A DNA stretch of 36,031 nucleotides from a virus. Its lineage: Duplodnaviria; Heunggongvirae; Uroviricota; Caudoviricetes. Both the position numbers and the translations under genes were made by a program. How positions within the stretch are numbered: position 1 is the stretch's first letter; the number at the start of each line of letters is the position of its first letter. The stretch is taken from the IMG/VR virus record IMGVR_UViG_3300042940_001739. One strand, written 5' to 3'. The notes under the pieces are model-generated. The model had not been told where the DNA came from, searched no databases, and was given only the letters and a program-made list of their open reading frames with translations. Below are positions 2,659-27,640 of this stretch, piece by piece.

Positions 2659-2680
2659 TAGGTTAGAATAAAATTTTAGT

Positions 2681-2711: not shown

Positions 2712-2720
2712 ACTTTGCTG

Positions 2721-2734: not shown

Positions 2735-2750
2735 CATAAGGAATATAGAA

Positions 2751-3272: not shown

Positions 3273-3290
3273 TCATTATGATATTATTTT

Positions 3291-3315
3291 AAAGGGGCTT
3301 TATTGCCCCTTTTTT
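3291..3315 (+). terminator. Rho-independent terminator after tube gene
   Basis: AAAGGGGC-TTTATT-GCCCCTTTTTT. Confidence 0.88.
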
Positions 3316-3324
3316 ACTGTACTT

Positions 3325-3338
3325 ATATTTATATTAAA
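3325..3338 (+). promoter_or_regulatory. Putative late promoter ATATTTATATTAAA
   Basis: Exact copy after the terminator, upstream of ATG 3360. Confidence 0.7.
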
Positions 3339-3359
3339 TAAGTTATAAGGACAAATAAT

Positions 3360-4115
3360 ATGGCATTAACAGACAGAGTTAACAACGACAACATTATTAA
3401 TTTGGCTCGTCAGCAATACGAAGCTAAACAAAAAAGTAAATTACCTACAGTTATAGTAAATCTTCCGAGTCAAGGAAAAATTTATCCGAAGTCACATCCA
3501 TTAGCCCACGGTACGGTCGAAATGCGATATATGACTGCATATGATGAAGATATATTAACAAATGCATCTTATATTCGAGAAGGCTTAGTTTTTGATAAAT
3601 TATTAGAAGCTATTATCATTACTCCAGTTAATGTAGATGATATTGCTACAGTTGATAAAGATTGTTTAATTATCAATGCACGTATATTAGCATATGGTTC
3701 TGATTATCCTGTAATAGTATCTGAGCCTAAAACGGGTAAACAACTTGAAAAAACAGTTGATTTATCTAAAATACAACATGTTCCATTTAATTTAGAAAAT
3801 GATGAAAATGGTGAGTTTGAATATAAAACTGATAAATTTACATTGAAGTTTTCATATTTTAATACAGGGACAATTAGTGATATAACGATATCAGGTTTAT
3901 TGAAAAGAATTATTCGAGAAGTAAATGGTAAACGTGATTCTGCAGAAATTGAAAACTTTCTTCGTTACGAATTGTTATCTCGAGATTCAAAACAATTTAG
4001 AGAATACTATATAAATAATACTCCTAGTTTAGATTATAACTATGAATTCGAAGGTGAAGATGGGAGCACCTTCAAAACTACCTTTCAAGTTGGAACAAAC
4101 CTTTTTTGGATTTAA
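3360..4115 (+). CDS. Tail/baseplate-hub assembly chaperone (T4 gp26-like); upstream frame of a putative frameshift pair
   Basis: LPSQGKIYP..VEMRYMTAYDEDIL..D..LIINARILAYG pattern; lies between the tube and tape-measure genes. Confidence 0.75.
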   Translation: MALTDRVNNDNIINLARQQYEAKQKSKLPTVIVNLPSQGKIYPKSHPLAHGTVEMRYMTAYDEDILTNASYIREGLVFDKLLEAIIITPVNVDDIATVDKDCLIINARILAYGSDYPVIVSEPKTGKQLEKTVDLSKIQHVPFNLENDENGEFEYKTDKFTLKFSYFNTGTISDITISGLLKRIIREVNGKRDSAEIENFLRYELLSRDSKQFREYYINNTPSLDYNYEFEGEDGSTFKTTFQVGTNLFWI

Positions 4116-4332
4116 TCCAGACGACCGAGTAAAGTTACATGATAATATATTCAATCTAATTTGGCACGGTGACGGCCGATGGGATTGGGATACTATATAT
4201 CATATGCCTATATTTTTACGACGCTTTTATATTAAAAAAGTAACTAAAATTCTAGAAGAGCGAGAAGATGCTCGTGAAAAACAGCGAGAAGCTATAGAAC
4301 AGCGTAAAAACAACAAAAATCCTAGGCGATAA
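4102..4332 (+). CDS. Small tail-assembly chaperone segment (T4 gp51-like / lambda T-like), probably expressed by frameshift from 3360..4115
   Basis: FFGFNPDDRVKLHDNIFNLIWHGDGRWDWDTIYHMPIFLRRFY; frame overlaps the end of the upstream gene at a T6 run; the ATG at 4042 has no obvious RBS. Confidence 0.7.
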   Translation, partial: FFGFNPDDRVKLHDNIFNLIWHGDGRWDWDTIYHMPIFLRRFYIKKVTKILEEREDAREKQREAIEQRKNNKNPRR

Positions 4333-4346
4333 ATATTTATATTAAA
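4333..4346 (+). promoter_or_regulatory. Putative late promoter ATATTTATATTAAA
   Basis: Exact copy upstream of ATG 4360. Confidence 0.7.
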
Positions 4347-4359
4347 TGGAACTAAATCT

Positions 4360-6099
4360 ATGAGTCTAAGCCAACAAAATATCATTTCTAAATTAAAACA
4401 ACAACCTAGACACGGTATGGCTGATGATATAGGCGGCATAAAACTATTAGCTACACTTAAAACTAGTTTCACTGAGTTAACTCCATTGTTAACAATGTTC
4501 AATGACGAAAACGTTCAAATGAATGTTGGGTTATCACGAGTATTGGGAACAGCTGAAAGTTTAATTGAAAAATTCAAAAACTATACTGCTGAAGTTAATA
4601 TATTAGAACAACGAAATAAAGAATTAAATAAATCATTTGGCATTAATAGTATTGCCGCAGCTAAGTTAAGTAACGAAATAACTACTTCTGCAGAAAAGCT
4701 AGGCGTATCAACAGCACAAATGAAAAAATATGTTGGTAGCATTAAAAGTATTGTTCCAACGATTGATGTATTAAAAGCTCAAAGCAACGATTACTATCAA
4801 GGATTAGCAAGAGTACAGCAAGTACTAACTACAAACTTAGGCTTAACTGAAGAACAAGCAGCTTCATATTCACTATTTGCAGGACAAGGCGGTAAAAATG
4901 CTGAGGATCAACTAGCTTCTCAAGCAGCACTAGCAGCAGAAATTGAACGTACTACTGGGATGCAAGGATCATTTAAAGTGATTAGTGAAGGGATTGCAGA
5001 AACAACAGCAGATCTTCAATTACAATACGGCCGAATACCAGGAAGTTTAGAAGTTGGTATATTAAAAGCCAAAGCTTTGGGGTTTGCTATGGCTGATTTG
5101 AATAAAACGGCTGACAACTTATTAAATATTGAGTCTAGTATTGGACAAGAATTAGAATATCAATTATTAAGCGGACATCGTTTAGTTGATACTAAAGGTA
5201 AAAGTTTAACTAATTCGTATCGAGAAGCCACATTGCAAGGAAATGCATCTAAACAAGCAGATACATTGAATACAATTTTAGAGCAAGAAGGCGATACGTT
5301 AAAAAATAACTTGTTTGCTAGAAAGCAAATGTCTGAGTTATTAGGTATGGATGAAGCTTCATTATCTCGTGCATTACAGAAAAAGTCTATCTTAGAAAGT
5401 CTTCCAGGAGGAGAATCATTATTTAATGAAACCGGAGACGCTCTTTTAGAAGCAGCTAAAACAGCTGGTGCTACTAAAGAACAAATAGACGCATTAGTTA
5501 AGTCTGAAGATACTCGTACAACGGACCAAAAGATTGAACAAACTTTAGCTATGATGGTTGATAAAGGAATTAAAGCTCAACTAGTAGACCAAGTAGGTGC
5601 AGTAACTGGAGCAAGCACAGCTTCGACTCTAGCAGCAAAAAATATAAACATGCCAGGTGCTGGAGCATCATCTGGTGCTATAACAGCATTAGGTAGTCAA
5701 CAAATTGGTGTCGACTATGTACAAGAAATGGATACCGCATTAAAAGCTGCAAAAGATTTTTTTAAAAACTTTGTCGAAACAATAACTAATGCTAATAATT
5801 ATAAGTTAGATAAATCTAAATTAGCAACAACTAAGAACGTCGACGCTACATTTGATGACTTTATTGCAACACCGACAGGTTATGGCGATCGAATCTTATT
5901 AGCTGGCGAAGACACATTTGCATTGAATAATAATGATACAATTGTTGGTGGAACTAATTTAGGTGGAGGTGGAGGTGGAGGCGACGATAAATTATCACAA
6001 GTAATGATGCAGGTAGGCGCAATGATTGTAAGTGCAATTAATCGCAAACAAACAGAACAATTATTTAGTGGTGGAATTAATGCACCAACATATGGATAA
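4360..6099 (+). CDS. Tape measure protein (putative)
   Basis: 579 aa, Ala/Gln/Leu-rich helical sequence directly after the chaperone pair; size similar to T4 gp29. Confidence 0.7.
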   Translation: MSLSQQNIISKLKQQPRHGMADDIGGIKLLATLKTSFTELTPLLTMFNDENVQMNVGLSRVLGTAESLIEKFKNYTAEVNILEQRNKELNKSFGINSIAAAKLSNEITTSAEKLGVSTAQMKKYVGSIKSIVPTIDVLKAQSNDYYQGLARVQQVLTTNLGLTEEQAASYSLFAGQGGKNAEDQLASQAALAAEIERTTGMQGSFKVISEGIAETTADLQLQYGRIPGSLEVGILKAKALGFAMADLNKTADNLLNIESSIGQELEYQLLSGHRLVDTKGKSLTNSYREATLQGNASKQADTLNTILEQEGDTLKNNLFARKQMSELLGMDEASLSRALQKKSILESLPGGESLFNETGDALLEAAKTAGATKEQIDALVKSEDTRTTDQKIEQTLAMMVDKGIKAQLVDQVGAVTGASTASTLAAKNINMPGAGASSGAITALGSQQIGVDYVQEMDTALKAAKDFFKNFVETITNANNYKLDKSKLATTKNVDATFDDFIATPTGYGDRILLAGEDTFALNNNDTIVGGTNLGGGGGGGDDKLSQVMMQVGAMIVSAINRKQTEQLFSGGINAPTYG

Positions 6100-6104
6100 C
6101 AAAT

Positions 6105-7583
6105 ATGAGTAACCCAACAATAGGAAAAATCACCGGAATTCCATCATCAGCAATATGGTCTCCATTACCTGCACAAAATACTAATATTACAACAAAAAGC
6201 ACTGGTAAACAACTATTAGGCTTTGCTGCAAATGCCGCATCATCATTTACAGGTATTCCGCAGATATCTCAAATAGCAAATAGTAGTTTTGCTAAAGAAG
6301 ATAGTTTGTCAGCAACATATTCAACATTACCATTAGATAAACTATATGCACCACAGTTCATTCAATTATCTGATTTCAGATCTAGAATTAATGTAGATAG
6401 CTCAACTAATTTAAAACCAATTGACAAAGTAGCAGCATTCTTATCAACTCGCAGACTCGATGGTACTAGCGCATTAGCACGTGGAAGTTATACTGCAGGA
6501 GCTTATGCAGCTGCATCTGTAACTCCAATTGGCGCATATTCAATTTTCAACTTGAACGGTAATGGATTAACTGGTTATGGTTGGGGAGAGCATGATAATC
6601 CAAATGCATTACGCAATGATTTTACTATGCGAAGTCATGTTGCAACTCGATGGAAAAAAGGAGAATTAGATGTAGCAACAGGAAAACTTGGTAAAGGAAC
6701 TTGGGCACCAACATTTAACCCGGTTGAACGAATTACGCCGTTCCGAGGAGACCGTGTAACTGTTATTGATTTTTCACAAAGATCTGAAAAGCAAGCATAT
6801 TTATGGAACCCTATTTCATTGAATGGATTTGATGGCGCAGTTGGCGCCGCATTAAATGCTTTAGGGCTAGGTGGAACTACTCAAGATTTTATAAAATTTT
6901 ATTTTACAGGCCCAGCTCTTCATAACAATGCAGCAGTTGGCACAACTGATGATATCATAGTATTTAGAGCAACATTAGGATCATTATCCGATTCATTCCA
7001 AGCAAATTGGACACCAGTTAATATGATTGGTAGAGCAGATCCAAATTATCAATATACAGGATATAGTCGAGATGTAAGTTTAGATTTTACGGTATATGCA
7101 ACAGATAGAGACGAATTAAAACCGATATACAGAAAGTTAAATGCACTAGCAGGTTATATGGCACCAACTTATCTTAAAGATAGTATTGCAATGCAAGCCC
7201 CATGGATGCGTTTAACTATAGGAGATTTATTTCATCAACAACCGGTAATTTTAACAGCATTAGATTATACATTAGTCGACCAAGATACAACATGGGAAAT
7301 TAATATTGAAAAAGATCCTACCATGATGGAAGTGCCACATAAAGTAACAGTAAGATGTAGCTTTACAATGATATCTGACTTCTTGCCACAAAAAGGCGGA
7401 AGATTCTATTCATTGGCAAAAGAATATGATAGTAGCGGAAATCCAATTGCAGGAAATTCAAATTGGTTAAGTGACTCATTAGACAATGTAGATGCAATAC
7501 CAGATGTACCACAAGATCCAAATTCAGGCACAAGCATTGGTCGAGGAAAAGGTAGATTTTCAAGAGGAAAAGGAAAAATATGA
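6105..7583 (+). CDS. Baseplate / tail-tube initiator-like protein
   Basis: C-terminal half FRATLGSLSDSF..W......GRADP.YQY.GYSR.VSLDFTV..P.MRLTIGDL resembles tube-fold baseplate proteins; follows the tape measure. Confidence 0.6.
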   Translation: MSNPTIGKITGIPSSAIWSPLPAQNTNITTKSTGKQLLGFAANAASSFTGIPQISQIANSSFAKEDSLSATYSTLPLDKLYAPQFIQLSDFRSRINVDSSTNLKPIDKVAAFLSTRRLDGTSALARGSYTAGAYAAASVTPIGAYSIFNLNGNGLTGYGWGEHDNPNALRNDFTMRSHVATRWKKGELDVATGKLGKGTWAPTFNPVERITPFRGDRVTVIDFSQRSEKQAYLWNPISLNGFDGAVGAALNALGLGGTTQDFIKFYFTGPALHNNAAVGTTDDIIVFRATLGSLSDSFQANWTPVNMIGRADPNYQYTGYSRDVSLDFTVYATDRDELKPIYRKLNALAGYMAPTYLKDSIAMQAPWMRLTIGDLFHQQPVILTALDYTLVDQDTTWEINIEKDPTMMEVPHKVTVRCSFTMISDFLPQKGGRFYSLAKEYDSSGNPIAGNSNWLSDSLDNVDAIPDVPQDPNSGTSIGRGKGRFSRGKGKI

Positions 7584-7879
7584 GTAGATATGCAACAAGC
7601 AGAGTAATTACTGCTAACAATGAAAAACGATATCAATCAACAACAATAGTCCCAGTATTACCATTTTCTGAGTCTGATACTTATATTGTAACAACTAGTG
7701 TAGAGCGATTAGACAAATTAGCTAATACATTTTATAATGATTCGTCTAAATGGTGGGCTATTGCAATAGTAAATGGATTGGGTAAAGGAACATTGATGGT
7801 ACCTAGTAATTCTAGATTAAGAATACCTAGTATAGCAAACATACAACAAATTATTAATAACTCAAATAGTTTAAGATGA
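7580..7879 (+). CDS. Small LysM-like baseplate protein (gp53 / P2 gpX-like)
   Basis: RLDKLANTFYNDSSKWWAIAIVN...LRIP motif; ATGA overlap with the upstream gene. Confidence 0.75.
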   Translation: MSRYATSRVITANNEKRYQSTTIVPVLPFSESDTYIVTTSVERLDKLANTFYNDSSKWWAIAIVNGLGKGTLMVPSNSRLRIPSIANIQQIINNSNSLR

Positions 7880-10221
7880 GTAATATATTCTATTCAGAAG
7901 TAGATCCTAATTTACAAACAGAGTTAAACTATCGAGGTAACTCTGGTAAAACTCGTACTACTGAAGATATTAATTTCATGGTTAGTAAACTTGCTAATGT
8001 ACAGTTAACAGCTTATGAAGATAATAAACCAGATCCTAGTAAAATTGTAAAAGACCATGGAATATTAGGAGGACAATTAGTTCGAAGTGGTAGATATTTG
8101 CCAAGCGGATTTTTATCAAAACAAGATTATACATCAACGACAGTTGAATTTGTCGACGACAAAAATATTAATATTGTAAATGCTACCAGAGCTCTTCGAG
8201 GACAAAAATCATTAACACCTGGCCAAGCATTTTCTCAAGTAAATCATTCAATTGATGAGTCATACCGAATTGGTCCATATGTTACTAGTGTTGATATAAC
8301 AATCGGCGACCATTCAATGGGTTTATTGAATAAAGCTACAGTTAATATATCAATACCAAACCCCGGTAGAGATTTAGATGCCATGGAAGATACGTGGTTT
8401 CGCCCAGGACGTTATGTTAAGATACAAGTAGCTCAAGCTGACTCAGCAATTTTATCTAGGGATTCTGAAGGCAATGCTGGACTATTAAGTACAACTTCAA
8501 TTCCTATTAAAGACAAATTAAAGGAACTATATCCTAATTGGGATATTGATAAACTAGAAAAAGAAATTAGAAAGATGAATGAATATTCATTTGAAGGATT
8601 AATAACCTCATTTGAATTTTCATATCAATCTAACGGACAGGTTGATGCTACGCTTTCACTAACCGGTACTAGTAATGTATATACAGATGTATCTATGTGG
8701 ATGCAAACTCCAACAAAAAAAGATGATGTAGCTAAACCAAAAGTAGACACCGATCCAGTTATTGGAGTAGTGAATATACCAACACAACCAGCAGTAAGTG
8801 GTCCAACTGCAAATACAGGCTCAGTTGTAACTAAAAATGAATTTTATGATAAACTATATACACAAGTTGATTCATTGATCAATGAAGCTCGATACTTAGA
8901 TGGTTTTGAATTAGTTAGTAGTGGCATAGTTCAATTTAAAACTAGCACTTCTAATAAAACAAACACTACAGATCAATATATTTTATTTGGCGAACCGTAT
9001 CAACAAACATTATCACAAGCTGCAGCTGCTGGCGCTAGCACAAGTAAATTTAACCGTTATATAACATTAGGAGCTTTAGTCCAATTTTTAAATGATACAG
9101 TTGTTAATAAAATTACAGGATCAGCTACAAATGCTCAAGTTATATGTGATACTGAATTTAGTTGTTGCAACTATTATTCATTATTAACATCATGTATACC
9201 AGACCAAGTTTTACTATTGCCTGAAACAACTAATAGTGCGGATGGAATGAATGTATATGGAACGGAATTAACATATTACAAATATATCAATGAAAATTAT
9301 AATGCAAATTCAGAGAGGTTAGCACAGTGGCCAGGTGTCCATACAAATTCTGCTGCAGCTGACACTAATAAAATTTACGGATCTAGAATTTTCATTAATT
9401 TAGAAACAATTCAAAAGATATTAAATGGTGAAGATGGTAAGTCTGGATTAACTGCAGGCGGAACAAAAAGTTTCTCACTTAAACAGTTTATAGCAACTGT
9501 TAGTAGTAAACTAAATTATGCTACTGGTGGGTCAATTTCAATGAAATTAATCACGCATCCATTAGATGAAACTAAATTATTGCTTAACGATTCTAAATAT
9601 TTAAAAACCCCTTTGTTAGGTGATCCTGGAAAACCTGTAATTGTTACTCCGTATGAGATTCCTATGTTTGCAAATCATAAGAATGGAACAATTGTCCGCG
9701 AGTTTAAAATGTCAGCAACATTACCGGAAAATGCTAAAAATTTATCTTATGTATTAAATGAAGGTGACGAAGTAACTGAAGAGGAAATTGCACCATATAT
9801 GAACATGATGTACAATGCAAAAGATCCTGATTCAATTAATAAGGTAATGCAAAAGTATAAAGATAAACATGCAAATATTAGAACTCAACTTATTGATACA
9901 AAAAAAGCATTTGGAAATGCCCCTACGATCCCGGAGAAAAGCCAAGCTCTTTGGAAAGCATTATCTTCATATATAAAATATCCAACAGATGACATCCGCA
10001 AATCGCAACAAATGACCGCGCCAATATTTCCATTTAGTGTTGACTTTACAATCGATGGTATTAATGGGTTTAGATATGGCGATGTATTACAATTTGTTGG
10101 ATTACCAAAAAAATATCGAGAGAATACGGTATTTAGTATTATAAGTATAACACATACAATAGGAACAGACGGACAATGGACATCTGCGATTAAATGTATA
10201 ATGAGACCGAGTATAAGCTAA
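7876..10221 (+). CDS. Putative baseplate hub protein (gp27-like)
   Basis: Position after the LysM-like gene; FEGLITSFEFS and C-terminal FTIDGINGFRYGD..FSIISITHTI...W.S.I beta-rich pattern. Confidence 0.55.
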   Translation: MSNIFYSEVDPNLQTELNYRGNSGKTRTTEDINFMVSKLANVQLTAYEDNKPDPSKIVKDHGILGGQLVRSGRYLPSGFLSKQDYTSTTVEFVDDKNINIVNATRALRGQKSLTPGQAFSQVNHSIDESYRIGPYVTSVDITIGDHSMGLLNKATVNISIPNPGRDLDAMEDTWFRPGRYVKIQVAQADSAILSRDSEGNAGLLSTTSIPIKDKLKELYPNWDIDKLEKEIRKMNEYSFEGLITSFEFSYQSNGQVDATLSLTGTSNVYTDVSMWMQTPTKKDDVAKPKVDTDPVIGVVNIPTQPAVSGPTANTGSVVTKNEFYDKLYTQVDSLINEARYLDGFELVSSGIVQFKTSTSNKTNTTDQYILFGEPYQQTLSQAAAAGASTSKFNRYITLGALVQFLNDTVVNKITGSATNAQVICDTEFSCCNYYSLLTSCIPDQVLLLPETTNSADGMNVYGTELTYYKYINENYNANSERLAQWPGVHTNSAAADTNKIYGSRIFINLETIQKILNGEDGKSGLTAGGTKSFSLKQFIATVSSKLNYATGGSISMKLITHPLDETKLLLNDSKYLKTPLLGDPGKPVIVTPYEIPMFANHKNGTIVREFKMSATLPENAKNLSYVLNEGDEVTEEEIAPYMNMMYNAKDPDSINKVMQKYKDKHANIRTQLIDTKKAFGNAPTIPEKSQALWKALSSYIKYPTDDIRKSQQMTAPIFPFSVDFTIDGINGFRYGDVLQFVGLPKKYRENTVFSIISITHTIGTDGQWTSAIKCIMRPSIS

Positions 10222-10829
10222 TGAGATTTAAACTATATTATACAGCTGATGAAATAACAACTAATTTATATACATCTGGTTCTGAATTTATGACCGAAGA
10301 TAATATAGAGTATCGTGGATTATATCATAGTTATATTACCGGAGAAGTATATACCGGGGCTGAATGGAATTCTAAAATATCAAAAAAACTTATTAAATGG
10401 CGTGATGTAACAACTAAGAATGCTGTATATCAAAATCTGAAGCCAGCAGAATTAGTATTTGATGTGCCGAGTCCAACAATTATATCAATAACTATACAAC
10501 ATATTAAAGCAGGTTTAATTGATCGTTATTTCATAAAAAAATATAATGACACACATATAATGGAAATTGATTTAACTCAGTATGAAAAATGGCTATCAAA
10601 AAAAATTGATTCTGTTGTTTATTCAGCTGTTAAAATTCCATGGTCTATAACCGGCCCTATAGATGATGAATTAGTAAATGGTACATTAATTAAAGGAATT
10701 AGAAATAAGAATTTGTTACAAGTTATTTCTGCAAATAGTAAAATGCCAGGATTATCTAATTTCTTAACTAACCCATTACAATTTTATCAAGATACATCAT
10801 TTACGATTCCAAAAGATATCAATGAATAA
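10221..10829 (+). CDS. Hypothetical virion-associated protein
   Basis: ORF; start chosen at ATG 10221 (TAATG overlap) rather than 10194; last gene of the tail operon. Confidence 0.55.
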   Translation: MRFKLYYTADEITTNLYTSGSEFMTEDNIEYRGLYHSYITGEVYTGAEWNSKISKKLIKWRDVTTKNAVYQNLKPAELVFDVPSPTIISITIQHIKAGLIDRYFIKKYNDTHIMEIDLTQYEKWLSKKIDSVVYSAVKIPWSITGPIDDELVNGTLIKGIRNKNLLQVISANSKMPGLSNFLTNPLQFYQDTSFTIPKDINE

Positions 10830-10867: not shown

Positions 10868-12190
10868 ATGATAGTAGATACTGAAGATGAACTAAACGGA
10901 TTATTCGAATACATACAAGGTCGTAAAACTTTGTTAGTCCCTATATTAGCGGATTCTCAGAAACATGCTTCAATTAATAGAGTTTCGTGTATATACATTT
11001 ATACCGAAGATGATGTAGAACGCATTGTGCCTATCAATCATACAGAACAAGTACGCCCCTTCCAAGAACATTTACAACGGTTTCTAGATCTAACTGACAT
11101 CTTTGTTTATGATAAAAAACAGTGGCTTCAAATAGGAGGTAATGGGTCTGTATGGGATGTAAAGACTTTGTGGTGGTATACTTATAATGAAGCATATGAT
11201 GAAACTCATTATTATACGCCAGCTCATCAGTTTTATTGGAGGCGACATACCGCATTACCAAATGTAAATGCAGTAATACCTTTGATGCAACATTTAGCAA
11301 TGTGTCAAAAAATTAGAAAGTATGCTTGGCCAATGTGTATGAATGTCAAACTTACAGATTCATATTTATTGTTTAATTCTACATATCCGACAACATTTGC
11401 AGACATAGAACGAAATGGTCTTCACGTTACGGCAGACTTTAAAATGCCGGAGCTTGTTACAAATGAATTAGTGTATACAAATTATCATTATCATACAACG
11501 ACAGGACGACCTAGTAACGCATTTCGAGGATTTAATTATGCGGCCATGAATAAAGAAGATGGAACAAGAGATTCATTTGTAACTAGATTTGAACGAGGTG
11601 CATTAGTTGAAATGGACTTTGATGCATACCACGTAAGGTTAATTGCTCGTTTAATTGGCTATGCATTACCAGACGGATCAGTGCACGAATATTTTGGTAG
11701 ATTTTATTTTGATAGTAAACAATTGACTGATGAGCAATATGAACAAAGCAAACAAATCACGTTCCGTTTATTGTACGGAGGTATTGACAAAGAATTTTTA
11801 GAAATTCCATTTTTCAAAAAAGTAAATGATTTTATTTATGATTTATGGCGTCAGTGGAAAGCAAAGTCATATATAAAAACGCCAATATTAAAAAGAAGAA
11901 TAAGTTCAGATGCTGTACAGAACATGACAGCAAACAAATTGTTCAACTATTATTTACAAGCAACCGAAACAGAAGTGTCTGTACAGAAACTACAAGCAGT
12001 TCAACGAGTATTGCAAGGTCATGAAACTTGCATAATACTTTATACATATGACTCCGTTTTATTTGATGTTCCATTAACCGAAGCTAAAGAAATGCTACCT
12101 GCAATTAAAAATGCATTAGAGGCAGGCAATTTCCCGGTAAAAGTTAAAGTTGGCAATATTTATAGTAAAATGGATACTATCTCGTTATGA
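10868..12190 (+). CDS. Minimal, divergent family A DNA polymerase-like protein
   Basis: TTTGRPS, motif A EMDFDAYHVR, motif B SKQITFRLLYGG, NYYLQ, motif C YTYDSVLFDV; no recognisable exonuclease acidic motifs. Confidence 0.85.
   Translation: MIVDTEDELNGLFEYIQGRKTLLVPILADSQKHASINRVSCIYIYTEDDVERIVPINHTEQVRPFQEHLQRFLDLTDIFVYDKKQWLQIGGNGSVWDVKTLWWYTYNEAYDETHYYTPAHQFYWRRHTALPNVNAVIPLMQHLAMCQKIRKYAWPMCMNVKLTDSYLLFNSTYPTTFADIERNGLHVTADFKMPELVTNELVYTNYHYHTTTGRPSNAFRGFNYAAMNKEDGTRDSFVTRFERGALVEMDFDAYHVRLIARLIGYALPDGSVHEYFGRFYFDSKQLTDEQYEQSKQITFRLLYGGIDKEFLEIPFFKKVNDFIYDLWRQWKAKSYIKTPILKRRISSDAVQNMTANKLFNYYLQATETEVSVQKLQAVQRVLQGHETCIILYTYDSVLFDVPLTEAKEMLPAIKNALEAGNFPVKVKVGNIYSKMDTISL
12156..12169 (+). 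promoter_or_regulatory. Putative late promoter ATATTTATAGTAAA inside the polA 3' end
   Basis: 13/14 match to the recurrent motif, 17 nt before ATG 12187. Confidence 0.6.
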
Positions 12191-13413
12191 ACATCAACTC
12201 AATACTAACAGAATGGCAATTTAGACTTCCGTCAGGATATCCAACTCAAGCATCTGACTATAAACTTTTAGAACAAATATTAGTTGAACAAGGGGTAGAT
12301 TCAGAAGAAGCTGAACAAATTGCACAGCGTGCTCAAAATGCTAATGATACAACAGCTTCTAGATTTAATGAAATCGGATTGTCAGACAATATAGTTCAAC
12401 AAATTGAAGCAATCTATTCAAATTTTAGTCCTCAAGAACGTAGTGACTTTGACAAAAATTACAGAACACATTCAGTACAATCATATATACAAGGAGGCTA
12501 TCGTCCATTTCAGAAGTTTTATACTGTAATTGATACAACTAAAACTGCGGGTGCGATGGGTAAAGGCGAAGTACAAACATTGTTAGCAGTTGCAGGATCT
12601 AAACCAGGCGGCACTGCACAACATGATATTGTAATGGCAGAAGGTGAGTGGGAGATTAAAGAAGTTGGTAAAGCAAAATCAAATTCAAAAACATTCCGAC
12701 CAGCAAAATCAGGAGTACCTAAACAAGGAGATTTGCTTTACGAAACAGTTGATTTTTTCAATAACATCGTAATACCATTTTCTAAAATGGGAGATGCATT
12801 TGAAGATTTGAAACAATCAGTTGATGATCATTCTTGGGATAAGTTGCGAGAATTTATAACAGTATTAAATGAGTCATTTGTACCTTTAATTGATAATGTT
12901 TCCCGAAAGGAAATTAGTTATAGTTCTGGTTGGCAAACAATGTATGATGGATACAGAAGACTAAACAAAATATTCTGGCAAAGTGATTTAGATGTTGATA
13001 TTCAAGATACACGATTATCAATTAAAAGTCAAGACAAAGAATCATCATTTTGGATTGATACAAATGATTATGCTAAAATACAACAAGCATCTGGGGATGT
13101 AAACCCGGTAAGTGTTAATATTGGTTCTTCAATTGATGATGAAACATCAAATTCAGTTATCTGGTTTACTAAAATAAAACATAGCCAATTGATAAAAACA
13201 CCGGATACAATGATATCATTGTTAGATGCAACTAAAATAAGCTTCTTTAATGAATTGCTAGGACTTATTATATATGATATAGCAGCACCAGGAGTACCAA
13301 TTGCAACCACAGCAGCACAATGGTCTATTGTTGGTTTGACACAAGGTATGTGGACATTTGGACTAACAAAATCATTTTCAGAAAAATATACAATAATACA
13401 CTTACAAAACTAA
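12187..13413 (+). CDS. Hypothetical protein with a putative PD-(D/E)xK nuclease core
   Basis: MGKGEV...HDIVMAEGEWEIKEV resembles an E...D...ExK catalytic arrangement. Confidence 0.5.
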   Translation: MNINSILTEWQFRLPSGYPTQASDYKLLEQILVEQGVDSEEAEQIAQRAQNANDTTASRFNEIGLSDNIVQQIEAIYSNFSPQERSDFDKNYRTHSVQSYIQGGYRPFQKFYTVIDTTKTAGAMGKGEVQTLLAVAGSKPGGTAQHDIVMAEGEWEIKEVGKAKSNSKTFRPAKSGVPKQGDLLYETVDFFNNIVIPFSKMGDAFEDLKQSVDDHSWDKLREFITVLNESFVPLIDNVSRKEISYSSGWQTMYDGYRRLNKIFWQSDLDVDIQDTRLSIKSQDKESSFWIDTNDYAKIQQASGDVNPVSVNIGSSIDDETSNSVIWFTKIKHSQLIKTPDTMISLLDATKISFFNELLGLIIYDIAAPGVPIATTAAQWSIVGLTQGMWTFGLTKSFSEKYTIIHLQN

Positions 13414-13428: not shown

Positions 13429-13815
13429 TTGAAAACTCAATTATTATGCACCTTTGCACATAGAACAGATTTAAACATAGTTACAGAATATATTCAAGCT
13501 AACTACGAGATACCAGAACAAAGAATATTTGTATTCTCAAATGCTAATGTACAAGACAATTTATATTGTACATATAATGCTAATGAAACTTCAAGAAGAG
13601 GTCAGAATACAATAAGCATCCACCGCAAGAAAGAAACTAATACATTATATACTGTAAATGCACTTAATGAAGTGATTAGAGTGGTAAACAACGGTGTATT
13701 AGACAAAACATATCAATTGGATTGGACCAATTATCAAAACTCATTTATCCTTACTGATGATGATAGTTTTCGTATTATTCCATTAATATTTTTCAAGAAA
13801 CTTTCTTGGAAGTAA
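13429..13815 (+). CDS. Hypothetical protein (TTG start)
   Basis: 128-aa ORF filling the gap, with AGGA upstream. Confidence 0.65.
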   Translation: MKTQLLCTFAHRTDLNIVTEYIQANYEIPEQRIFVFSNANVQDNLYCTYNANETSRRGQNTISIHRKKETNTLYTVNALNEVIRVVNNGVLDKTYQLDWTNYQNSFILTDDDSFRIIPLIFFKKLSWK

Positions 13816-13920: not shown

Positions 13921-14697
13921 ATGGCTTTAAATTTAGACGCTATCAAAGCGAAACTTAATCAGTTGAACAAAGCTGATGACAAAAAACAAAATTTGTGGAA
14001 ACCTGAAGCAGGTAAGACACGTATTAGAATTGTACCTTATGTACACCGAAAAGACAATCCATTCTTAGAATTGTATTTTCATTATGACATTGCAAAACGT
14101 TCAATGTTATCTCCAATCACATTTGGCAACGCAGATCCAATTGTTGAATTCGCAGACAAACTTAAGAAAACTGGTGACAAAGACGAGTGGTTAATGGGTC
14201 GTAAAATCGAACCTAAAATGAGAACTTATGTTCCTGTAATCGTTCGTGGCAAAGAATCAGAAGGAGTTAAGTTTTGGGGATTCGGAAAACAAATTTACAC
14301 AGAATTATTATCAATCATTTCAGATCCTGATTATGGCGACATTACAGATTTGATGAATGGTCGTGATATTGATGTTGAATTTACTCCAGCAGAAGGCGCT
14401 AACTTCCCAAAAACATCAATCCGTGTTAAACCTAACACTCAACCAGCAACCGAAGACAAATCAATTGCTGAGAAAATCATGAATCAACCAGAAATCACTG
14501 ATTTATTCCCTGAACCGACTTATGACGAATTAGAAAAAGCATTAGCTGAATGGATGAACCCAGAAACAGCAGATGCAGACGTTTCTTCATCAACACCAGA
14601 AGTTGAAACTAGCGAAACTAGTGCACCTGCAAAAGCAGCTCCTGCTGCTAAAGTAGAAGATGTAGCATCGGCATTTGACGACTTATTCAATAACTAG
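13921..14697 (+). CDS. Single-stranded DNA-binding protein (T4 gp32-like)
   Basis: WKPEAGKTRIRIVP, GVKFWGFGK, DITDLMNGRDI; acidic tail ending AFDDLFNN. Confidence 0.85.
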   Translation: MALNLDAIKAKLNQLNKADDKKQNLWKPEAGKTRIRIVPYVHRKDNPFLELYFHYDIAKRSMLSPITFGNADPIVEFADKLKKTGDKDEWLMGRKIEPKMRTYVPVIVRGKESEGVKFWGFGKQIYTELLSIISDPDYGDITDLMNGRDIDVEFTPAEGANFPKTSIRVKPNTQPATEDKSIAEKIMNQPEITDLFPEPTYDELEKALAEWMNPETADADVSSSTPEVETSETSAPAKAAPAAKVEDVASAFDDLFNN

Positions 14698-14706: not shown

Positions 14707-15870
14707 ATGGCAAAGAGCAAAAGTAAATCAGAACTGGAAGACAGTTTAGCAAACACCCTTGCGGAAAGCATTAACAAGCAATTTAAAGGGCAAGCATTAA
14801 AGACTGCATTCTTTTTAGCTGGAGATGATGATTCTCCTAGCAATGTTAAAGATTGGATTTCATCAGGTTCAGATACGCTCGATTTGGCAATTTCTAACCG
14901 ACCGAACGGAGGATTCCCAGTAGGTCGGATTACCGAAATTACGGGTTTAGAAGCATCTGGTAAATCTTTATTAGCATCTCATGCACTAGCAGAAACTCAA
15001 AAGAAAGGCGGACTAGCAGTATATATAGATACTGAGTCAGCAACTAGTTCTGAGTTCCTTGAAGCGATTGGATGTGATTTAAAAACCATGTTGTATGTTC
15101 CGTTAGAAACAATTGAAGAAATATTTGAAACTATTGAAACAATTGTTGAAGGAGTTCGTAAATCAAATAAAGATCGTTTAGTTACAATTGTAGTAGATTC
15201 AGTAATGGGTGCTTCAACAAAAATTGAAATGGCTGCTGAATATGATAAAGATGGTTATGCAACAAGTAAATCAATTATCTTATCAAAAGCTATGCGTAAA
15301 GTTACTAACTGGATTGCACGAGAAAACATTTGTTTGATTTTCACAAATCAGTTAAGAACTAAATTAGGTGTGTCATTTGGTGACCAATGGACAACTGCAG
15401 GAGGAAAAGCAATTCCATTCCACGCATCAGTAAGACTTCGTTTAAAAAATACAGGAATGATCAAAGCTAAAATGAATGGCGTAGAGCAAGTTGTAGGAAG
15501 TAAAACAGAAGTTCAAGTTGTGAAGAATCGTATGGGACCGCCGCACCGCAAAGTTAATTATGATATTTACTATGATAGTGGTATTGATAATTATGGTGGT
15601 TGGTTAGAGTTAATGAAAAAGTTTGACTTAGTTAAACAATCAGGAGCTTGGTACACATTGGAAGACATCGACCATGAAACAGGTGAAGTATTTGGTGAGG
15701 TTAAATTCCAAAGCAAAGATTTCATTGAAAAGGTAATGCAAGATACTAAAGTTAAAGACCGTTTATACAAAAGAATATGTGATGCATATATCTTCAAGTA
15801 TCAAGCAGGAATTGACGGAGGCATTGACGACGTTATTATTACAGAAGAAGTTATAGACGAAGAAGGATAA
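14707..15870 (+). CDS. uvsX: RecA/UvsX recombinase
   Basis: GGFPVGRITEITGLEASGKS (Walker A), YIDTE, IVVDSV, IFTNQLR, GGKAIPFHASVR, KNRMGPP. Confidence 0.95.
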   Translation: MAKSKSKSELEDSLANTLAESINKQFKGQALKTAFFLAGDDDSPSNVKDWISSGSDTLDLAISNRPNGGFPVGRITEITGLEASGKSLLASHALAETQKKGGLAVYIDTESATSSEFLEAIGCDLKTMLYVPLETIEEIFETIETIVEGVRKSNKDRLVTIVVDSVMGASTKIEMAAEYDKDGYATSKSIILSKAMRKVTNWIARENICLIFTNQLRTKLGVSFGDQWTTAGGKAIPFHASVRLRLKNTGMIKAKMNGVEQVVGSKTEVQVVKNRMGPPHRKVNYDIYYDSGIDNYGGWLELMKKFDLVKQSGAWYTLEDIDHETGEVFGEVKFQSKDFIEKVMQDTKVKDRLYKRICDAYIFKYQAGIDGGIDDVIITEEVIDEEG

Positions 15871-16931
15871 TGAATAAGTATCAGCAACTCTTCAAACAGT
15901 TACAATTAGAAAAGGAACAGGGTCCGTCAGATGTGAACGATCATATCATGGTATTTGACGGACTCAATACCTTTATTCGTGCATTTGGAGCAACACCGTC
16001 AACTAATGAAGATGGCGAACATATTGGAGGAATCACAGGATTCTTGTATTCAATTGGTAAAGCAGTTCGAGACTTTAAACCAAGCAGATGCGTTATTGTA
16101 TTTGATGGTAGAGGTGGTTCTGCTCGAAGAAAAAAGATTTACGGAGATTATAAAGGTAATAGAGCTAATAAAACTAGATTGCGTCGACATGATCATCAAC
16201 AATTTCCAAGTTTAGAAGATGAACAAGAAGCAATGCGTTGGCAATTTAGTCGATTAGTATCTTACTTAGATAATTTGCCAGTAACATTTTTAGCAATTGA
16301 CGGAATCGAAGCTGATGACACTATTGCATATATTGCTCAAATGTATCAACCAATTAGCAAAAAGATTACAATTGTTTCTACGGATAGAGATTTTTATCAA
16401 TTAATAAGTCCTCAATTGCAGGTTTGGTCTCCAATCAAAAAGAAAATGTATAATGAAGAAGCATTGATTGAAGAATTTGGGGTTCATCCGAATAACTATG
16501 TTGTATACAGGACATTCACAGGAGATAACTCAGATAATATACCAGGCGTAGCAGGTATAGGTCCTAAAACAATTCTAAAATCATTTCCGGAGTTACAATC
16601 AACTGAAGAATTTACTTTAGAAGATTTGCAAAATAAATGTAACAGCAAAATTGCATTAAATGAAACAAAAAATTATCAAAAGGTTCTAGACAACTTTGAC
16701 ACTATTGATAAGAATTATCGTTTAATGAATATCAAGTTATTGAATATACCAGCACAAAATGCATCAACGATTAGAGGTATATTGCAACAACCAATACCCG
16801 ACTTAAATAAAATGGAGTTCCAAAGAATGTTCATGGAAGATAAGATGTGGGGTACAATGAAAAATTTACCAGAGTGGTTAAACAACACTTGGTTATCTTT
16901 AAGCGCGTTCGCGAAACAAACACACAAGTAA
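15870..16931 (+). CDS. rnh: 5'-3' exonuclease / flap endonuclease (T4 RNase H-like)
   Basis: FDGLN, VFDG, YKGNR, EADDTI, STDRDFYQL, GDNSDNIPGVAGIGPKT. Confidence 0.93.
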   Translation: MNKYQQLFKQLQLEKEQGPSDVNDHIMVFDGLNTFIRAFGATPSTNEDGEHIGGITGFLYSIGKAVRDFKPSRCVIVFDGRGGSARRKKIYGDYKGNRANKTRLRRHDHQQFPSLEDEQEAMRWQFSRLVSYLDNLPVTFLAIDGIEADDTIAYIAQMYQPISKKITIVSTDRDFYQLISPQLQVWSPIKKKMYNEEALIEEFGVHPNNYVVYRTFTGDNSDNIPGVAGIGPKTILKSFPELQSTEEFTLEDLQNKCNSKIALNETKNYQKVLDNFDTIDKNYRLMNIKLLNIPAQNASTIRGILQQPIPDLNKMEFQRMFMEDKMWGTMKNLPEWLNNTWLSLSAFAKQTHK

Positions 16932-16968: not shown

Positions 16969-18324
16969 ATGACAGACAAATTAAGTGAATACGGATGGGG
17001 CTTTCAAGTTAAAGTTATAGCCGCTATGTTTACAGATAGATTATTTTTACAACAAATTGCAGATATAATTCAAGCAGATTATTTTGAATCAGATGCAAAT
17101 ATTTGGTTGTTAGAAATAGTTTTGAAACATTTCCGTGAATATAAATGTCCCCCATCTAAAGATGTATTAAAAGTAAAAATTACAGAGGTTGAGAATGACA
17201 TTCTTAAAACTGCAATATTGGAACAACTTAAAGAAGTGTTTCGATATATGGAGTCGGATGACTTAAACTTTGTTAAAGATGAAATTTTAAGTTTTTGTAA
17301 AAATCAAGAAATCAAACGAGCAATTATGGACTCGGTTGGGTTACTCAAAATGGGTAGCTATGATGAAATTAAAACTAAGATTGATAGTGCAATGAAAGCC
17401 GGAGCTGATACAAATATTGGATTAGATTATAAAGAAAATATTTCAGCTCGTTATGCAGAAGCATCTAGACATACAATTACTACAGGTTGGGATGTTGTTG
17501 ATGATTTAATGGACGGTGGATTAGCTCGAGGTGAATTAGGAGTAGTAATGGCACCTGCAGGTATCGGTAAATCTTGGCTTCTTATTAATATTGGCGCTAA
17601 TGCAATAAAAGCAGGACATACAGTAATACACTATACATTAGAGCTTAATGAAAACTATGTAGGACAACGTTATGATTCAGTGTTGACAGGTATTAATGCA
17701 CAGACATTGAAACATCATCAAGACACAGTTGAAGAAAAAATGAAAACGTTGCGAGGTGATTTAATTGTAAAATACTTCCCAACAAAATCAATTGGCGTGA
17801 TGGGTTTAAAAGCACATTTAGAAAAGACAATGATGCTAGGAAAGAAACCTGCACTAGTAATTGTGGATTATGGTGACTTGTTAAAGATCAATGTTAAAAA
17901 GGACAAGCACGAAGCATTAGAAGAACTTTACGAGGAGTTACGTGGAATGGCTGGGGAATATGACATTCCATTATGGACCGCATCACAAGCAGGTAGATCG
18001 GCATTAGAAGACGATATTATCGAAGCAGACAAAATTGCATCTTCATATGGTAAAGTGATGGTTGCTGACTTTTTAATGTCACTTTCTAGAAAAGTTGAAG
18101 ATAAGATGTCAGGCACAGGTAGAGGTCACGTTATTAAAAATAGATTTGGTCCTGATGGTATTACTTTACCAAGTAAAATCAACACAAACAATGGACAATT
18201 TCAATTCTTTGAACCACAAACAACTCAAGGTAAACAAACAACTCAAGTTATGAAAAGTGGCGAAAATATTATGAAGAAAAACTTGGCTCAAAAGTTCAAG
18301 GACATGGGCGGAAGTTTAGGTTAA
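16969..18324 (+). CDS. Replicative DnaB-family helicase (T4 gp41-like)
   Basis: GGLARGELGVVMAPAGIGKS, YTLEL, IVDYGDLL, WTASQ, IKNRFG. Confidence 0.93.
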   Translation: MTDKLSEYGWGFQVKVIAAMFTDRLFLQQIADIIQADYFESDANIWLLEIVLKHFREYKCPPSKDVLKVKITEVENDILKTAILEQLKEVFRYMESDDLNFVKDEILSFCKNQEIKRAIMDSVGLLKMGSYDEIKTKIDSAMKAGADTNIGLDYKENISARYAEASRHTITTGWDVVDDLMDGGLARGELGVVMAPAGIGKSWLLINIGANAIKAGHTVIHYTLELNENYVGQRYDSVLTGINAQTLKHHQDTVEEKMKTLRGDLIVKYFPTKSIGVMGLKAHLEKTMMLGKKPALVIVDYGDLLKINVKKDKHEALEELYEELRGMAGEYDIPLWTASQAGRSALEDDIIEADKIASSYGKVMVADFLMSLSRKVEDKMSGTGRGHVIKNRFGPDGITLPSKINTNNGQFQFFEPQTTQGKQTTQVMKSGENIMKKNLAQKFKDMGGSLG

Positions 18325-24660: not shown

Positions 24661-25127
24661 AAGAATTAGCACAAGCAATATCAACAGATCACGTTTTTAA
24701 TAGTGATAATGTATTGCCACCCGTAATGATATGTGTATTGAATGGATCATTTCATTTCTTTTCAGATCTAACAAGAATGATGTCAATTGACTCAGAAGTT
24801 GATTTTATTAGATTGAAATCATATGAAGGTCAAGACAATTCACAAGGCGTATCAGTTATTAAAGATTTAGAATTAGATTTAAAAGGCAAACGAGTTTATA
24901 TTGTTGACGACATTTTAGATACTGGTGCTACAATGATTGAAGCATTGCACATGGTTAATTCTAGAATGGCACAAGAAGTAAAAATAGTAACATTGTTAAA
25001 ACGCAAAGATGGCCCAATGACTCCTGACTTTTATGGATTTGAAATAGGAGATGAATGGGTTCTAGGCTACGGTTTAGATGACTATGGATTAAAAAGACAC
25101 GAACGAAATATATACAAAATAAATTAA
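24618..25127 (+). CDS. hpt: Hypoxanthine/guanine phosphoribosyltransferase
   Basis: CVLNGSFHFFSDL, KSY, PRPP loop VYIVDDILDTGAT, VLGYGLD. Confidence 0.9.
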   Translation: MEIIIKEEDIAKRVKELAQAISTDHVFNSDNVLPPVMICVLNGSFHFFSDLTRMMSIDSEVDFIRLKSYEGQDNSQGVSVIKDLELDLKGKRVYIVDDILDTGATMIEALHMVNSRMAQEVKIVTLLKRKDGPMTPDFYGFEIGDEWVLGYGLDDYGLKRHERNIYKIN

Positions 25128-27640
25128 TGGCATATCAAGCAATAGGTTACGACAAAAAGAATGGCATCATGCACATATGGGATGATGAGTTAGGACATAA
25201 CAAGTTCCCATTTCAACCATATGGATATTTGCCAGACGCAAATGGTCAATATCAATCCTTAGACGGAACTAGATTATCAAAAGTTCCTGGCAATCATCGA
25301 GATAATTCTAAATCATTCGAATCTGACTTAAATGAAGAAGTTAGAACTTTGATTGATTTATATTATGAATCAGATGAGCCATCAAAAGGACATAGAGATT
25401 TCTTTTTTGATATTGAAACAGCAAAAGACGAAAATGGTTATAGTACTACAGAAGATGTTCGAACAGTAATTACTTCTATCGCATATTATGACAAAGCAGG
25501 GAAAGACCGTCGTGTATTAATTCTAGACGAATTAGGCCGCATAAAAGAGCAGGAAATACAAGGAGACGGCTATGTATTAGAGATATTTCGTGACGAAAGA
25601 GACCTTTTAACACGATTTATCAATAAATTTGCAGAAATACAACCTACAGTAATTACGGGTTGGAACACTGATGGATATGATGTTCCTTATTTAATGGGAC
25701 GTTGTAAAAAGGTTTTAGGAGCACAATCAATTAAGAAGTTCTCACCTGCCGGCATTGTTGAACAGACAAAATCAGGTAAATGGAAGATCTTCGGAGTATC
25801 TAGTTTAGATTATATTAAATTGTATAAAAACTTTACGTATACTGAACTACCTAATTACCGATTAGACACTGTTGCTAAAAAAGAATTAGGTCGAGGAAAA
25901 GTAGAATATGACGGTGATTTAGACACATTGTTTACACAAGATATTCACAAGTTTGCTTATTACAATATGACTGACGTTGATTTGGTTTATGATATGGATG
26001 AAAAACTTCAATTATTAAACTTAGCACGTACAATATGTCATAAAGGACACGTTCCATATGAAGATGTGTATTATGCATCTAAATATCTAGATGGAGCAGC
26101 AATTGTAGATTTGAAACGAAATGGATTTGTTGCGCCTAACAAGCAATTTAGATTTATTGAAGAAGAAACAATGGCAGATGCTTTAGCAGGAGCATATGTA
26201 ATGGCACCAGTACCTGGATTGTATAAATGGATCTATGACTTGGACTTAACTTCGCTTTATCCGAGTATCATCATGACAGCAAATATTTCTCCAGAAACTA
26301 AAGTAGCTGTTATTAAAAATTGGAATCAAGAATGTTTGTTAAATAAGACACCTCAGCAAGTAGAATTCACAGATGGTAGTTATGCACATGACGTTAAACA
26401 ATGGTTGATTGATAACAATTATTCAGTTGCAAGTAACGGAGCTGTGTATAGAAATGATCAACGAGGTTTCCTTCCAACGATTCTAGAAAAATGGTTTGAC
26501 GAACGTGTTATTTACAAAGATAAACGTGATACATATGAAGTAGGAACAGAAGATTATAAATTCTATGATGCGATGCAGTTAACACAAAAAGTATTGCTTA
26601 ACTCATTCTACGGAGTATTAGGATTAAAAACATTCAGATTCTATGATTTAGATAATGCAGGAGCAATTACAGCAGTTGGTCAAAGCATTATTAAATTCTC
26701 AGCAAAAGTTATTAATAACTATTACAAGAAAGAATTAGGAACTGATCACTTTATTAATGCATCAGGTGGCAAAGCAGAGTTTGCATTTTATACAGATACA
26801 GATTCAACGTTTTGTAGTAGTGAGCCATTAATTAAACATCGTTTCCCAGGATGTGATACTGAAGATGAACAGTTCATGATTGAACAAACAAATGCAATTG
26901 CATCTGAGATTCAAAAGACTGTTAATACGATGTATAATCAATATGCAAAAGTATTCCACAATACAGAAAAGCACCGTTTCCAAATTAAGCAGGAGTATAT
27001 TGCTAAATCTGGTTTATGGATTGCAAAGAAACGCTATGCACAGTGGGTTATTTTCAAAGAAGGTAAACCTACGGATAAATTAGATGTAAAAGGATTAGAT
27101 GTTGTAAGATCTAGTTTCCCGGAAGATTTCAAAAAAATCATGAAAGAAACATTGTGGTTCATTCTTAAAGGTAAAGACAAACAAACTACATCAACATTGA
27201 TACATGATTTCAAAAGTAACATCAAGAAGTCAGAAGTATTAAATGTAATGAAGAATTCAAGTGTTAAAGAATTGTCTAAATACATTCGAGGAAGAAAACC
27301 ATTTACAGGATTTATCAAGGGTACAACAGCACACGCAAAAGCAGCAATCAATTTCAATGATATGCTTTCAACATTATCAACAGACATCTTACCAATTAAA
27401 GATGGCGAAAAAGTTAAATGGGGTTACATGTTAAATAATCCATATGGGTTTGAAACATTAGCATTGCGAGGATATCAAGATCCACCCGAGATAGTTGCAT
27501 TCGCAAATCAATACATTGACCACAATAAAATGTTTACATCAGACCTAAGCAACAAGTTCAATGACTTTTATGCAGCAATGGGTTGGGGCGCATTACCAGA
27601 AAATAATAATGCAAATAAATTCTTTTCATTTGGAAAATAA
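25127..27640 (+). CDS. Family B DNA polymerase (T4 gp43-like)
   Basis: ExoI FDIET, ExoII GWNTDGYD, ExoIII YNMTDV, DLTSLYPSI, KVLLNSFYG, YTDTDS, KKRYA. Confidence 0.97.
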   Translation: MAYQAIGYDKKNGIMHIWDDELGHNKFPFQPYGYLPDANGQYQSLDGTRLSKVPGNHRDNSKSFESDLNEEVRTLIDLYYESDEPSKGHRDFFFDIETAKDENGYSTTEDVRTVITSIAYYDKAGKDRRVLILDELGRIKEQEIQGDGYVLEIFRDERDLLTRFINKFAEIQPTVITGWNTDGYDVPYLMGRCKKVLGAQSIKKFSPAGIVEQTKSGKWKIFGVSSLDYIKLYKNFTYTELPNYRLDTVAKKELGRGKVEYDGDLDTLFTQDIHKFAYYNMTDVDLVYDMDEKLQLLNLARTICHKGHVPYEDVYYASKYLDGAAIVDLKRNGFVAPNKQFRFIEEETMADALAGAYVMAPVPGLYKWIYDLDLTSLYPSIIMTANISPETKVAVIKNWNQECLLNKTPQQVEFTDGSYAHDVKQWLIDNNYSVASNGAVYRNDQRGFLPTILEKWFDERVIYKDKRDTYEVGTEDYKFYDAMQLTQKVLLNSFYGVLGLKTFRFYDLDNAGAITAVGQSIIKFSAKVINNYYKKELGTDHFINASGGKAEFAFYTDTDSTFCSSEPLIKHRFPGCDTEDEQFMIEQTNAIASEIQKTVNTMYNQYAKVFHNTEKHRFQIKQEYIAKSGLWIAKKRYAQWVIFKEGKPTDKLDVKGLDVVRSSFPEDFKKIMKETLWFILKGKDKQTTSTLIHDFKSNIKKSEVLNVMKNSSVKELSKYIRGRKPFTGFIKGTTAHAKAAINFNDMLSTLSTDILPIKDGEKVKWGYMLNNPYGFETLALRGYQDPPEIVAFANQYIDHNKMFTSDLSNKFNDFYAAMGWGALPENNNANKFFSFGK

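Follow-up and report, generated by a model that had tools for sequence, protein, structure and literature searches.

A predicted miniature family-A DNA polymerase with histidine at the steric-gate position, encoded together with an intact PolB in an uncultured tailed phage

The stretch of DNA analysed here (36,031 nucleotides, hereafter the window) belongs to the IMG/VR virus record IMGVR_UViG_3300042940_001739 (Caudoviricetes), a 53-kb fragment that is ~32% complete, and its positions 10868–12190 encode a 440-amino-acid (aa) protein, divPolA1, that is most likely a proofreading-dead miniature family-A DNA polymerase, its activity being predicted from sequence and structural modelling. Judged by its sequence, the protein is a member of an already published family, named divPolA1 in a computational study by Yutin, Tolstoy, Mutz, Wolf, Krupovic and Koonin (Virol J 2024;21:200, PMC11348598; preprint 10.1101/2024.04.26.591309; cited throughout from its available text). 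Both catalytic aspartates are retained, the proofreading motifs are not recognisable, most of the thumb is lost, and four residues of the nucleotide pocket are replaced, among them the glutamate that serves as steric gate in Escherichia coli Pol I. The reading favoured here, at a probability of roughly 0.55, is that divPolA1 would be an active polymerase without exonuclease, distributive and accessory, that carries out short-patch DNA synthesis alongside an intact family-B replicase (PolB).

Fold and domain organisation

The original prediction, made from the letters of the window, had described a 440-aa open reading frame (ORF) with a PolA fold, and the gene coordinates, Pfam, PHROG, and AlphaFold2 (AF2) modelling followed by Foldseek agree on this assignment. 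The match to Pfam DNA_pol_A (PF00476) is a narrow pass (a score of 37.3 bits, the curated gathering threshold being 34.3) confined to residues 316–428, the ORF also matches phrog_17 (DNA polymerase), and a single-sequence phmmer search against PDB sequences returned a chance match only, a family profile being needed. The AF2 model, built with 130 diverse homologues as input, reached a predicted local distance difference test score (pLDDT) of 97.2 and a predicted template modelling score (pTM) of 0.94. Its best 50 of 307 significant Foldseek matches in the PDB are all family-A DNA polymerases, with no RNA polymerase among them; the top matches comprise Klenow, Bst and Taq Pol I, Pol nu, Pol theta and the apicoplast polymerase. 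The template modelling (TM) score by query against Klenow is 0.75–0.78, and superposition on the Foldseek matches spans both the N-terminal exonuclease-like and the C-terminal polymerase halves. At the gene level, the TGA stop of divPolA1 overlaps the ATG of the next ORF, and a scan around the gene found sigma-70 promoter sites at background (21 sites, 22.1 expected) and no terminators.

The N-terminal domain superposes on its Klenow counterpart and is apparently inactive: the DEDD exonuclease motif set is not recognisable in it by profile, the hhalign comparison with Klenow covering the polymerase half only, in keeping with the earlier remark that exonuclease motifs could not be made out. Family-wide conservation in this domain falls on H33, H58, D/E60 and D97, with D29 at 64%, and D/E60 and D97 are its only strongly conserved acidic positions; in a structure-guided alignment in PMC11348598, all three catalytic aspartates of the exonuclease domain are replaced. 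The Klenow thumb has ~77 residues (559–635 in Pol I numbering; chain residues 236–312) that fall unmatched between the two HMMER blocks of the divPolA1 alignment, and what remains of the thumb in the model is a two-helix hairpin. PMC11348598 likewise describes the family as having a conserved palm, a truncated thumb and an inactivated exonuclease domain.

The presence of the exonuclease-dead repair enzymes Pol theta and Pol nu among the structural matches supports an accessory role; both have an inactive exonuclease-like domain, as divPolA1 apparently does, and act beside a B-family replicase. They are eukaryotic enzymes, their likeness to divPolA1 being one of structure, and they keep the gate glutamate, the motif B arginine and a full thumb with insertions.

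Active-site register and conservation

The motif register was checked in two ways, with an HMMER family profile against Klenow and with hhalign (probability 97.3%), using E. coli Pol I strings from NC_000913 and T7 RNA polymerase (RNAP) strings from NC_001604; conservation was counted in an alignment of 130 diverse family sequences reaching down to ~30% identity. Both comparisons uphold the register first proposed for the window protein, with His at the position of E710, Tyr at that of R754 and YDS in place of HDE. In motif A, D250 corresponds to D705 (130/130) and H255 to the gate residue E710 (129/130). Motif B pairs Y291 with R754 (102/130), K295 with K758 (130/130), F299 with F762 (124/130) and Y303 with Y766 (128/130), while motif C pairs Y394 with H881 (129/130), D395 with D882 (130/130) and S396 with E883, where Ser is found in 108 sequences, Ala in 17 and Gly in five. 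The string NYYLQ aligns with NAPMQ (N360 with N845, 122/130; Q364 with Q849, 130/130), and R234 is present in 128 of the 130 sequences. The members from cultured phages (Flavobacterium phage immuto and Microcystis phage Mel-JY01) carry the same substitution signature, and on this alignment the histidine at the steric-gate position is real and family-wide.

Compared with E. coli Pol I and its Klenow fragment, divPolA1 shares the exonuclease-plus-polymerase fold and has equivalents of the TGR primer grip, D705/D882, K758, F762, Y766, N845/Q849, R682 and H734, whereas the thumb segment is missing, no DEDD set is recognisable, E710, R754, H881 and E883 have become His, Tyr, Tyr and Ser, and the 5' nuclease is a separate gene in the window phage. 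The net effect of the four changes is that the acidic E710 and E883 and the basic R754 are lost and His881 becomes Tyr, so that the H255/Y291/Y394/S396 set reads as a coordinated, charge-balanced remodelling of the deoxyribonucleoside triphosphate (dNTP) pocket and not as drift towards an RNA polymerase. The original idea of a specialised enzyme is supported, in that divPolA1 is a second polymerase whose nucleotide pocket has been remodelled.

E710 is the established ribonucleoside triphosphate (rNTP) gate of Pol I (Astatke 1998, as cited in the available text of PMC10201439). Its near-universal replacement by His, and the change of the motif C glutamate to Ser, Ala or Gly in every sequence, would suit an enzyme of relaxed or altered sugar selectivity that incorporates ribonucleotides, for example an RNA-patch or primer-extending polymerase, and T7 RNAP, with HDS at residues 811–813 as originally stated, likewise lacks this glutamate. 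The likeness to T7 RNAP comprises the family-A palm and, within motif C, the Ser alone; at the gate, T7 RNAP has the small Gly542 (D537-GSCS-G542) against the bulky H255, it keeps R627 against Y291, and its 883 aa include large N-terminal and promoter-recognition domains for which a 440-aa protein has no room. The earlier RNAP-like label, given to motif C, thus fits its serine, one of the three substitutions, and does not extend to the gate or to motif B. As F299 and Y303 are kept and the best 50 of 307 structural matches are free of RNA polymerases, ribonucleotide incorporation is judged unlikely.

Family assignment and distribution

According to PMC11348598, divPolA1 occurs in 14 phages of 155–190 kb that form the immuto group, with vB_FspM_immuto gp001 as the founder; replication genes lie downstream in a conserved arrangement, and a regular DNA polymerase (DNAP) of family A, B or C, encoded among GroES/GroEL and nucleotide-metabolism genes, always accompanies it. 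A tblastn comparison aligns 92% of the window protein with immuto gp001, annotated as ‘DNA polymerase family A’, at 30.9% identity (E=1e-55). The likeness extends to the size of the protein, the conserved palm, the truncated thumb, the exonuclease-like domain, the accompanying regular DNAP and the downstream order of SSB (single-stranded DNA-binding protein), recombinase, FEN, helicase and RNR (ribonucleotide reductase) genes, and, as in the arrangement reported in PMC11348598, the PolB of the window lies near Cpn10, phosphoribosyltransferase and FolE/QueD/QueE genes. The difference from the cultured member is one of distance, as the window protein, only ~31% identical to it, comes from a very abundant uncultured clade.

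A search of a 90%-clustered database returned 2202 matches, nearly all of ~440 aa. Grouped at 50% identity, those with E<1e-30 give 574 clusters, and in IMG/VR at least 590 stretches carry the gene; on these counts the family is far larger than the 14 published genomes. The available text of PMC11348598 makes no mention of the steric gate, of the R754/H881/E883 replacements or of a small partner gene, and ‘steric’ occurs nowhere in the text of the preprint, so that the gate histidine, its Tyr/Tyr/Ser companions and the linked 128-aa gene described below are apparently unreported.

The replication module

The genomic context was surveyed by tblastn of window proteins against 153 divPolA1 loci, 59 of which have at least 7.5 kb of downstream sequence (29 close and 30 distant); the distant representatives P0140 and P0261 lie on contigs too short for context and were replaced by a profile-based locus search. 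The order orf128, SSB, UvsX, FEN and DnaB after divPolA1 (Table 1) is found in 29/29 close and 27/30 distant loci and recurs in a 42%-identity representative, Mel-JY01 and immuto, with the RNR gene following the DnaB helicase in the window. Within this module divPolA1 is the fastest-evolving and least conserved gene, with a median identity of 71% in close loci against 82–92% for FEN, UvsX, DnaB and SSB, and of 35% against 43–58% in distant loci, as would fit an accessory enzyme.

Between divPolA1 and orf128 lies a variable site outside the conserved module, occupied in the window by a 408-aa ORF that is present in 14 of the 29 close loci and in none of the 30 distant ones, and for which Pfam and PHROG searches gave no match. 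A GKGE...D...EIK pattern seen by eye in this ORF (12187–13413) suggests a PD-(D/E)xK nuclease.

Table 1. Positions in the window of the divPolA1 gene, its domains and motifs, and genes of the replication region
Feature	Position	Strand	Remarks
divPolA1 gene, predicted minimal family-A DNA polymerase	10868..12190	+	440 aa, ATG start
N-terminal 3'-5' exonuclease-like domain, residues 1–138, apparently inactive	10868..11281	+	Klenow exonuclease-plus-polymerase superposition; DEDD set missing by profile
Thumb remnant, two-helix hairpin, residues 139–200	11282..11467	+	model secondary structure
Primer-grip motif TTTGRPS	11495..11515	+	aligns with TATGRLS; R214 = Klenow R668, 130/130
Motif A DFDAYHVR	11615..11638	+	aligns with DYSQIELR
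Motif B / O-helix YEQSKQITFRLLYG	11738..11779	+	aligns with RRSAKAINFGLIYG of Klenow
Motif C YTYDSVLFD	12041..12067	+	YTYDS aligns with QVHDE; Y394-D395-S396 at 12047–12055
408-aa ORF	12187..13413	+	variable site between divPolA1 and orf128
orf128, small alpha/beta protein	13429..13815	+	128 aa, TTG start, N-terminus QLLCTF
gp32-type ssDNA-binding protein (SSB)	13921..14697	+	
UvsX/RecA recombinase	14707..15870	+	
Stand-alone 5'-3' exonuclease (FEN, Pol I N-domain type)	15870..16931	+	Pfam 5_3_exonuc_N 3.8e-32, 5_3_exonuc 1.3e-10
DnaB/gp41-type replicative helicase	16969..18324	+	
T4 gp43-type PolB, regular replicase	25127..27640	+	phrog_262 1.6e-177

Upstream, tail and baseplate genes (187–10829, + strand) abut the module, with a gap of 38 nucleotides before divPolA1; they include the sheath (187–2658), tube (2715–3272), a hub-like protein (3360–4115) and a wedge protein (7580–7879), together with several large unassigned ORFs. 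The same junction of tail and replication genes is seen in the 42%-identity relative (L089).

Regular polymerase and primase

The coexistence of divPolA1 with a complete PolB, part of the original prediction, is confirmed: ExoI–III, motifs A, B and C, and KKRY are all intact in the window PolB (strings DIET, NTDGYD, DLTSLYPS, KVLLNSFYG, YTDTDS and KKRY), and clamp-loader genes are encoded besides. A regular DNAP accompanies divPolA1 in all ten larger genomes tested; nine have a PolB, and immuto has a canonical PolA of 778 aa.

The reverse assignment of roles, in which divPolA1 would be the unchanging replicase at the core of this phage group, or a subunit that its replisome requires, and the exchangeable regular DNAP the accessory, draws on the position of divPolA1 at the head of the replication module and on the variable family (A, B or C) and the chaperonin and nucleotide-metabolism surroundings of the regular DNAP (PMC11348598). 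It is considered very unlikely for an enzyme apparently devoid of proofreading, with its thumb nearly gone, in which no clamp-binding feature was identified and which is the least conserved gene of its module, all the more beside a PolB that is intact and has clamp-loader genes.

The earlier observation that no primase gene lies in the cluster is true of the window, and a Toprim search of the window's own 53-kb record found none either; as that record is ~32% complete, the absence is uninformative. A Toprim primase candidate ORF is present in 9/10 larger divPolA1 genomes tested (245 aa in G004, 313–333 aa in the others), among them every one of the five with a completeness of 95% or more, of which three have terminal repeats, and the sole genome of the ten without it is a 63%-complete record. 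The one such ORF tested belongs to G001, a relative that is 100% complete, and its match is to phrog_47 DNA primase (E=6e-29). The suggestion that divPolA1 might serve primer or RNA synthesis therefore loses its premise, the phage lineage having an ordinary primase.

The linked gene orf128

All 59 informative loci have orf128 downstream of divPolA1, either directly after it or past a variable insertion of 1–2.5 kb, of which the 408-aa ORF is the local example. The gene has 1892 homologues, is more conserved than divPolA1, and contains the invariant core NTISIHRKKETNTLYTINALNE; Pfam and PHROG searches assigned it to no family. The AF2 model is an alpha/beta fold (pLDDT 93.4) for which Foldseek found nothing below E=0.2 in the PDB, while a wide VIA-align structure search gave generic ferredoxin-like, ACT and RRM matches over residues 1–64 only (Z<=6.1) and detected no oligonucleotide/oligosaccharide-binding (OB) fold. 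T4 UvsY is helical, and by its alpha/beta model orf128 is probably not UvsY-like. A complex prediction for divPolA1 with orf128, run without controls, scored 0.00, which gives no verdict on binding either way; orf128 may act together with divPolA1 or with the gp32 and UvsX genes that follow. The orf128 orthologues on two distant divPolA1 phage contigs contain in-frame TGA codons (two in L125:5015–5401, one in L153:3901–4296), one of those in L125 standing, by eye, opposite a conserved Trp (W99 in the window orf128), which points to phages in which TGA encodes an amino acid.

A small gene after a trimmed family-A polymerase recalls CCPol-MP of staphylococcal SCCmec elements (eLife 2020;9:e55478), in which a short-thumb polymerase is likewise followed by a small protein and accompanied by a helicase gene, and in which CCPol, whose thumb is shortened, has been proven to act as a DNA primase with the OB-fold protein MP (available texts of PMC7581432 and PMC10061031). 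By analogy, divPolA1 might start DNA chains de novo with orf128 or the gp32-type SSB and hand them over to the helicase-coupled replisome, and the small conserved gene and SSB do always follow divPolA1, with the helicase downstream. CCPol keeps E710 and F762, of which divPolA1 lacks the Glu, has only a fragment of the exonuclease domain where divPolA1 has a full-size exonuclease-like domain, and is partnered by an OB-fold SSB, whereas orf128 shows no more than a generic ferredoxin-like N-terminal half and the gp32-type SSB stands one gene further on. Given also the conventional DnaG/gp61-type primase of the divPolA1 lineage, a primase-polymerase of this kind is highly improbable.

Nucleotide-metabolism genes

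Genes for 7-deazaguanine precursors lie just upstream of PolB on the + strand (FolE, 21214–21921; QueD/PTPS, 21914–22408; QueE, 22703–23506), beside GroES/Cpn10 (24116–24415, +) and a purine-type phosphoribosyltransferase (24618–25127, +); QueC was not recognised. The phosphoribosyltransferase next to PolB is a hint that modified DNA might arise by way of modified nucleotides. Downstream of PolB, a cytidylyltransferase-like protein and a weakly glycosyltransferase-1-like ORF (28086–28502 and 29476–30498, +) may be further candidates for DNA or nucleotide modification. A 422-aa ORF (30479–31747, +) has no Pfam or other family match; by offset it is the orthologue of 423–433-aa ORFs in the relatives G001 and G002, where weak, sub-threshold TGT (DpdA-like) matches of 18.8 bits occur, and the record to which the window belongs gave no match when searched for TGT/DpdA.

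The original prediction had also considered gap filling on modified DNA. A divPolA1 specialised in inserting or copying past 7-deazaguanine derivatives would be in keeping with FolE, QueD and QueE by the phosphoribosyltransferase and PolB genes in the window and with FolE in 4/5 divPolA1 genomes tested, but phage Mel-JY01 has divPolA1 and neither a FolE nor a TGT-like gene was found in it, and a link between divPolA1 and 7-deazaguanine genes was on that ground rejected as a rule. The changed residues, moreover, face the sugar/phosphate side of the pocket, as their positions do in the Pol I structure, and not the major-groove side on which purine position 7 lies. In the 7-deazaguanine systems known from phages, the modification is made after replication, by way of DpdA. 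A role specific to modified nucleotides is not particularly supported by these data and has only a slight chance of being correct.

Proposed function

In the favoured reading, divPolA1 would be a catalytically competent, DNA-templated, primer-dependent DNA polymerase that works on short DNA patches beside the replisome of PolB, clamp and clamp loader. With proofreading apparently lost and most of the thumb gone, it should be distributive and error-prone; in Pol I, truncating the thumb reduces processivity as well as fidelity (Minnick 1996, quoted in the available text of PMC10061031). The analysis shows the fold, the motif register, the conservation, the synteny and the co-occurrence with a regular DNAP and a primase, whereas polymerase activity, low processivity and a specific cellular job are what we infer. 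The enzyme might fill gaps after the neighbouring FEN has removed RNA primers, the functions of Pol I being split over two genes, and/or it might extend recombination intermediates made by the adjacent gp32 and UvsX proteins. Gap filling or repair, among the roles initially suggested, is the one judged most plausible.

Several points weigh against this proposal. The divPolA1 family is known from computation alone, and the loss of R754 and E883, both of which matter in Pol I, might leave catalysis weakened or changed. The canonical PolA of immuto-type phages weakens the logic of a split Pol I there, and FEN is besides just the equivalent of T4 RNase H, so that its nearness to divPolA1 may be a coincidence. 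As noted in PMC11348598, the conserved replication context surrounds divPolA1 and not the regular DNAP; this might instead speak for a core role.

Biological significance

The divPolA1 family is widespread in public genome and metagenome data, and the discovery value of the present member is limited as family and architecture have already been published. With 440 aa, a natural gate histidine, apparently no proofreading and almost no thumb, it offers a compact test case for sugar selection and processivity within the family-A fold, and could serve as an enzyme scaffold. A more far-reaching outcome, doubtful on present evidence, is that the His/Tyr/Tyr/Ser pocket gives a substrate choice unlike that of characterised family-A DNA polymerases (rNTP tolerance or preference, extension of RNA primers as a ‘Pol alpha-like’ hand-off enzyme, or initiation with the 128-aa protein), in which event divPolA1 would be the constant, essential polymerase of very abundant aquatic phages, with an interchangeable regular DNAP. 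The job of divPolA1, once established, would explain why large phages of this kind have two polymerases each and are able to swap the regular DNAP among families A, B and C.

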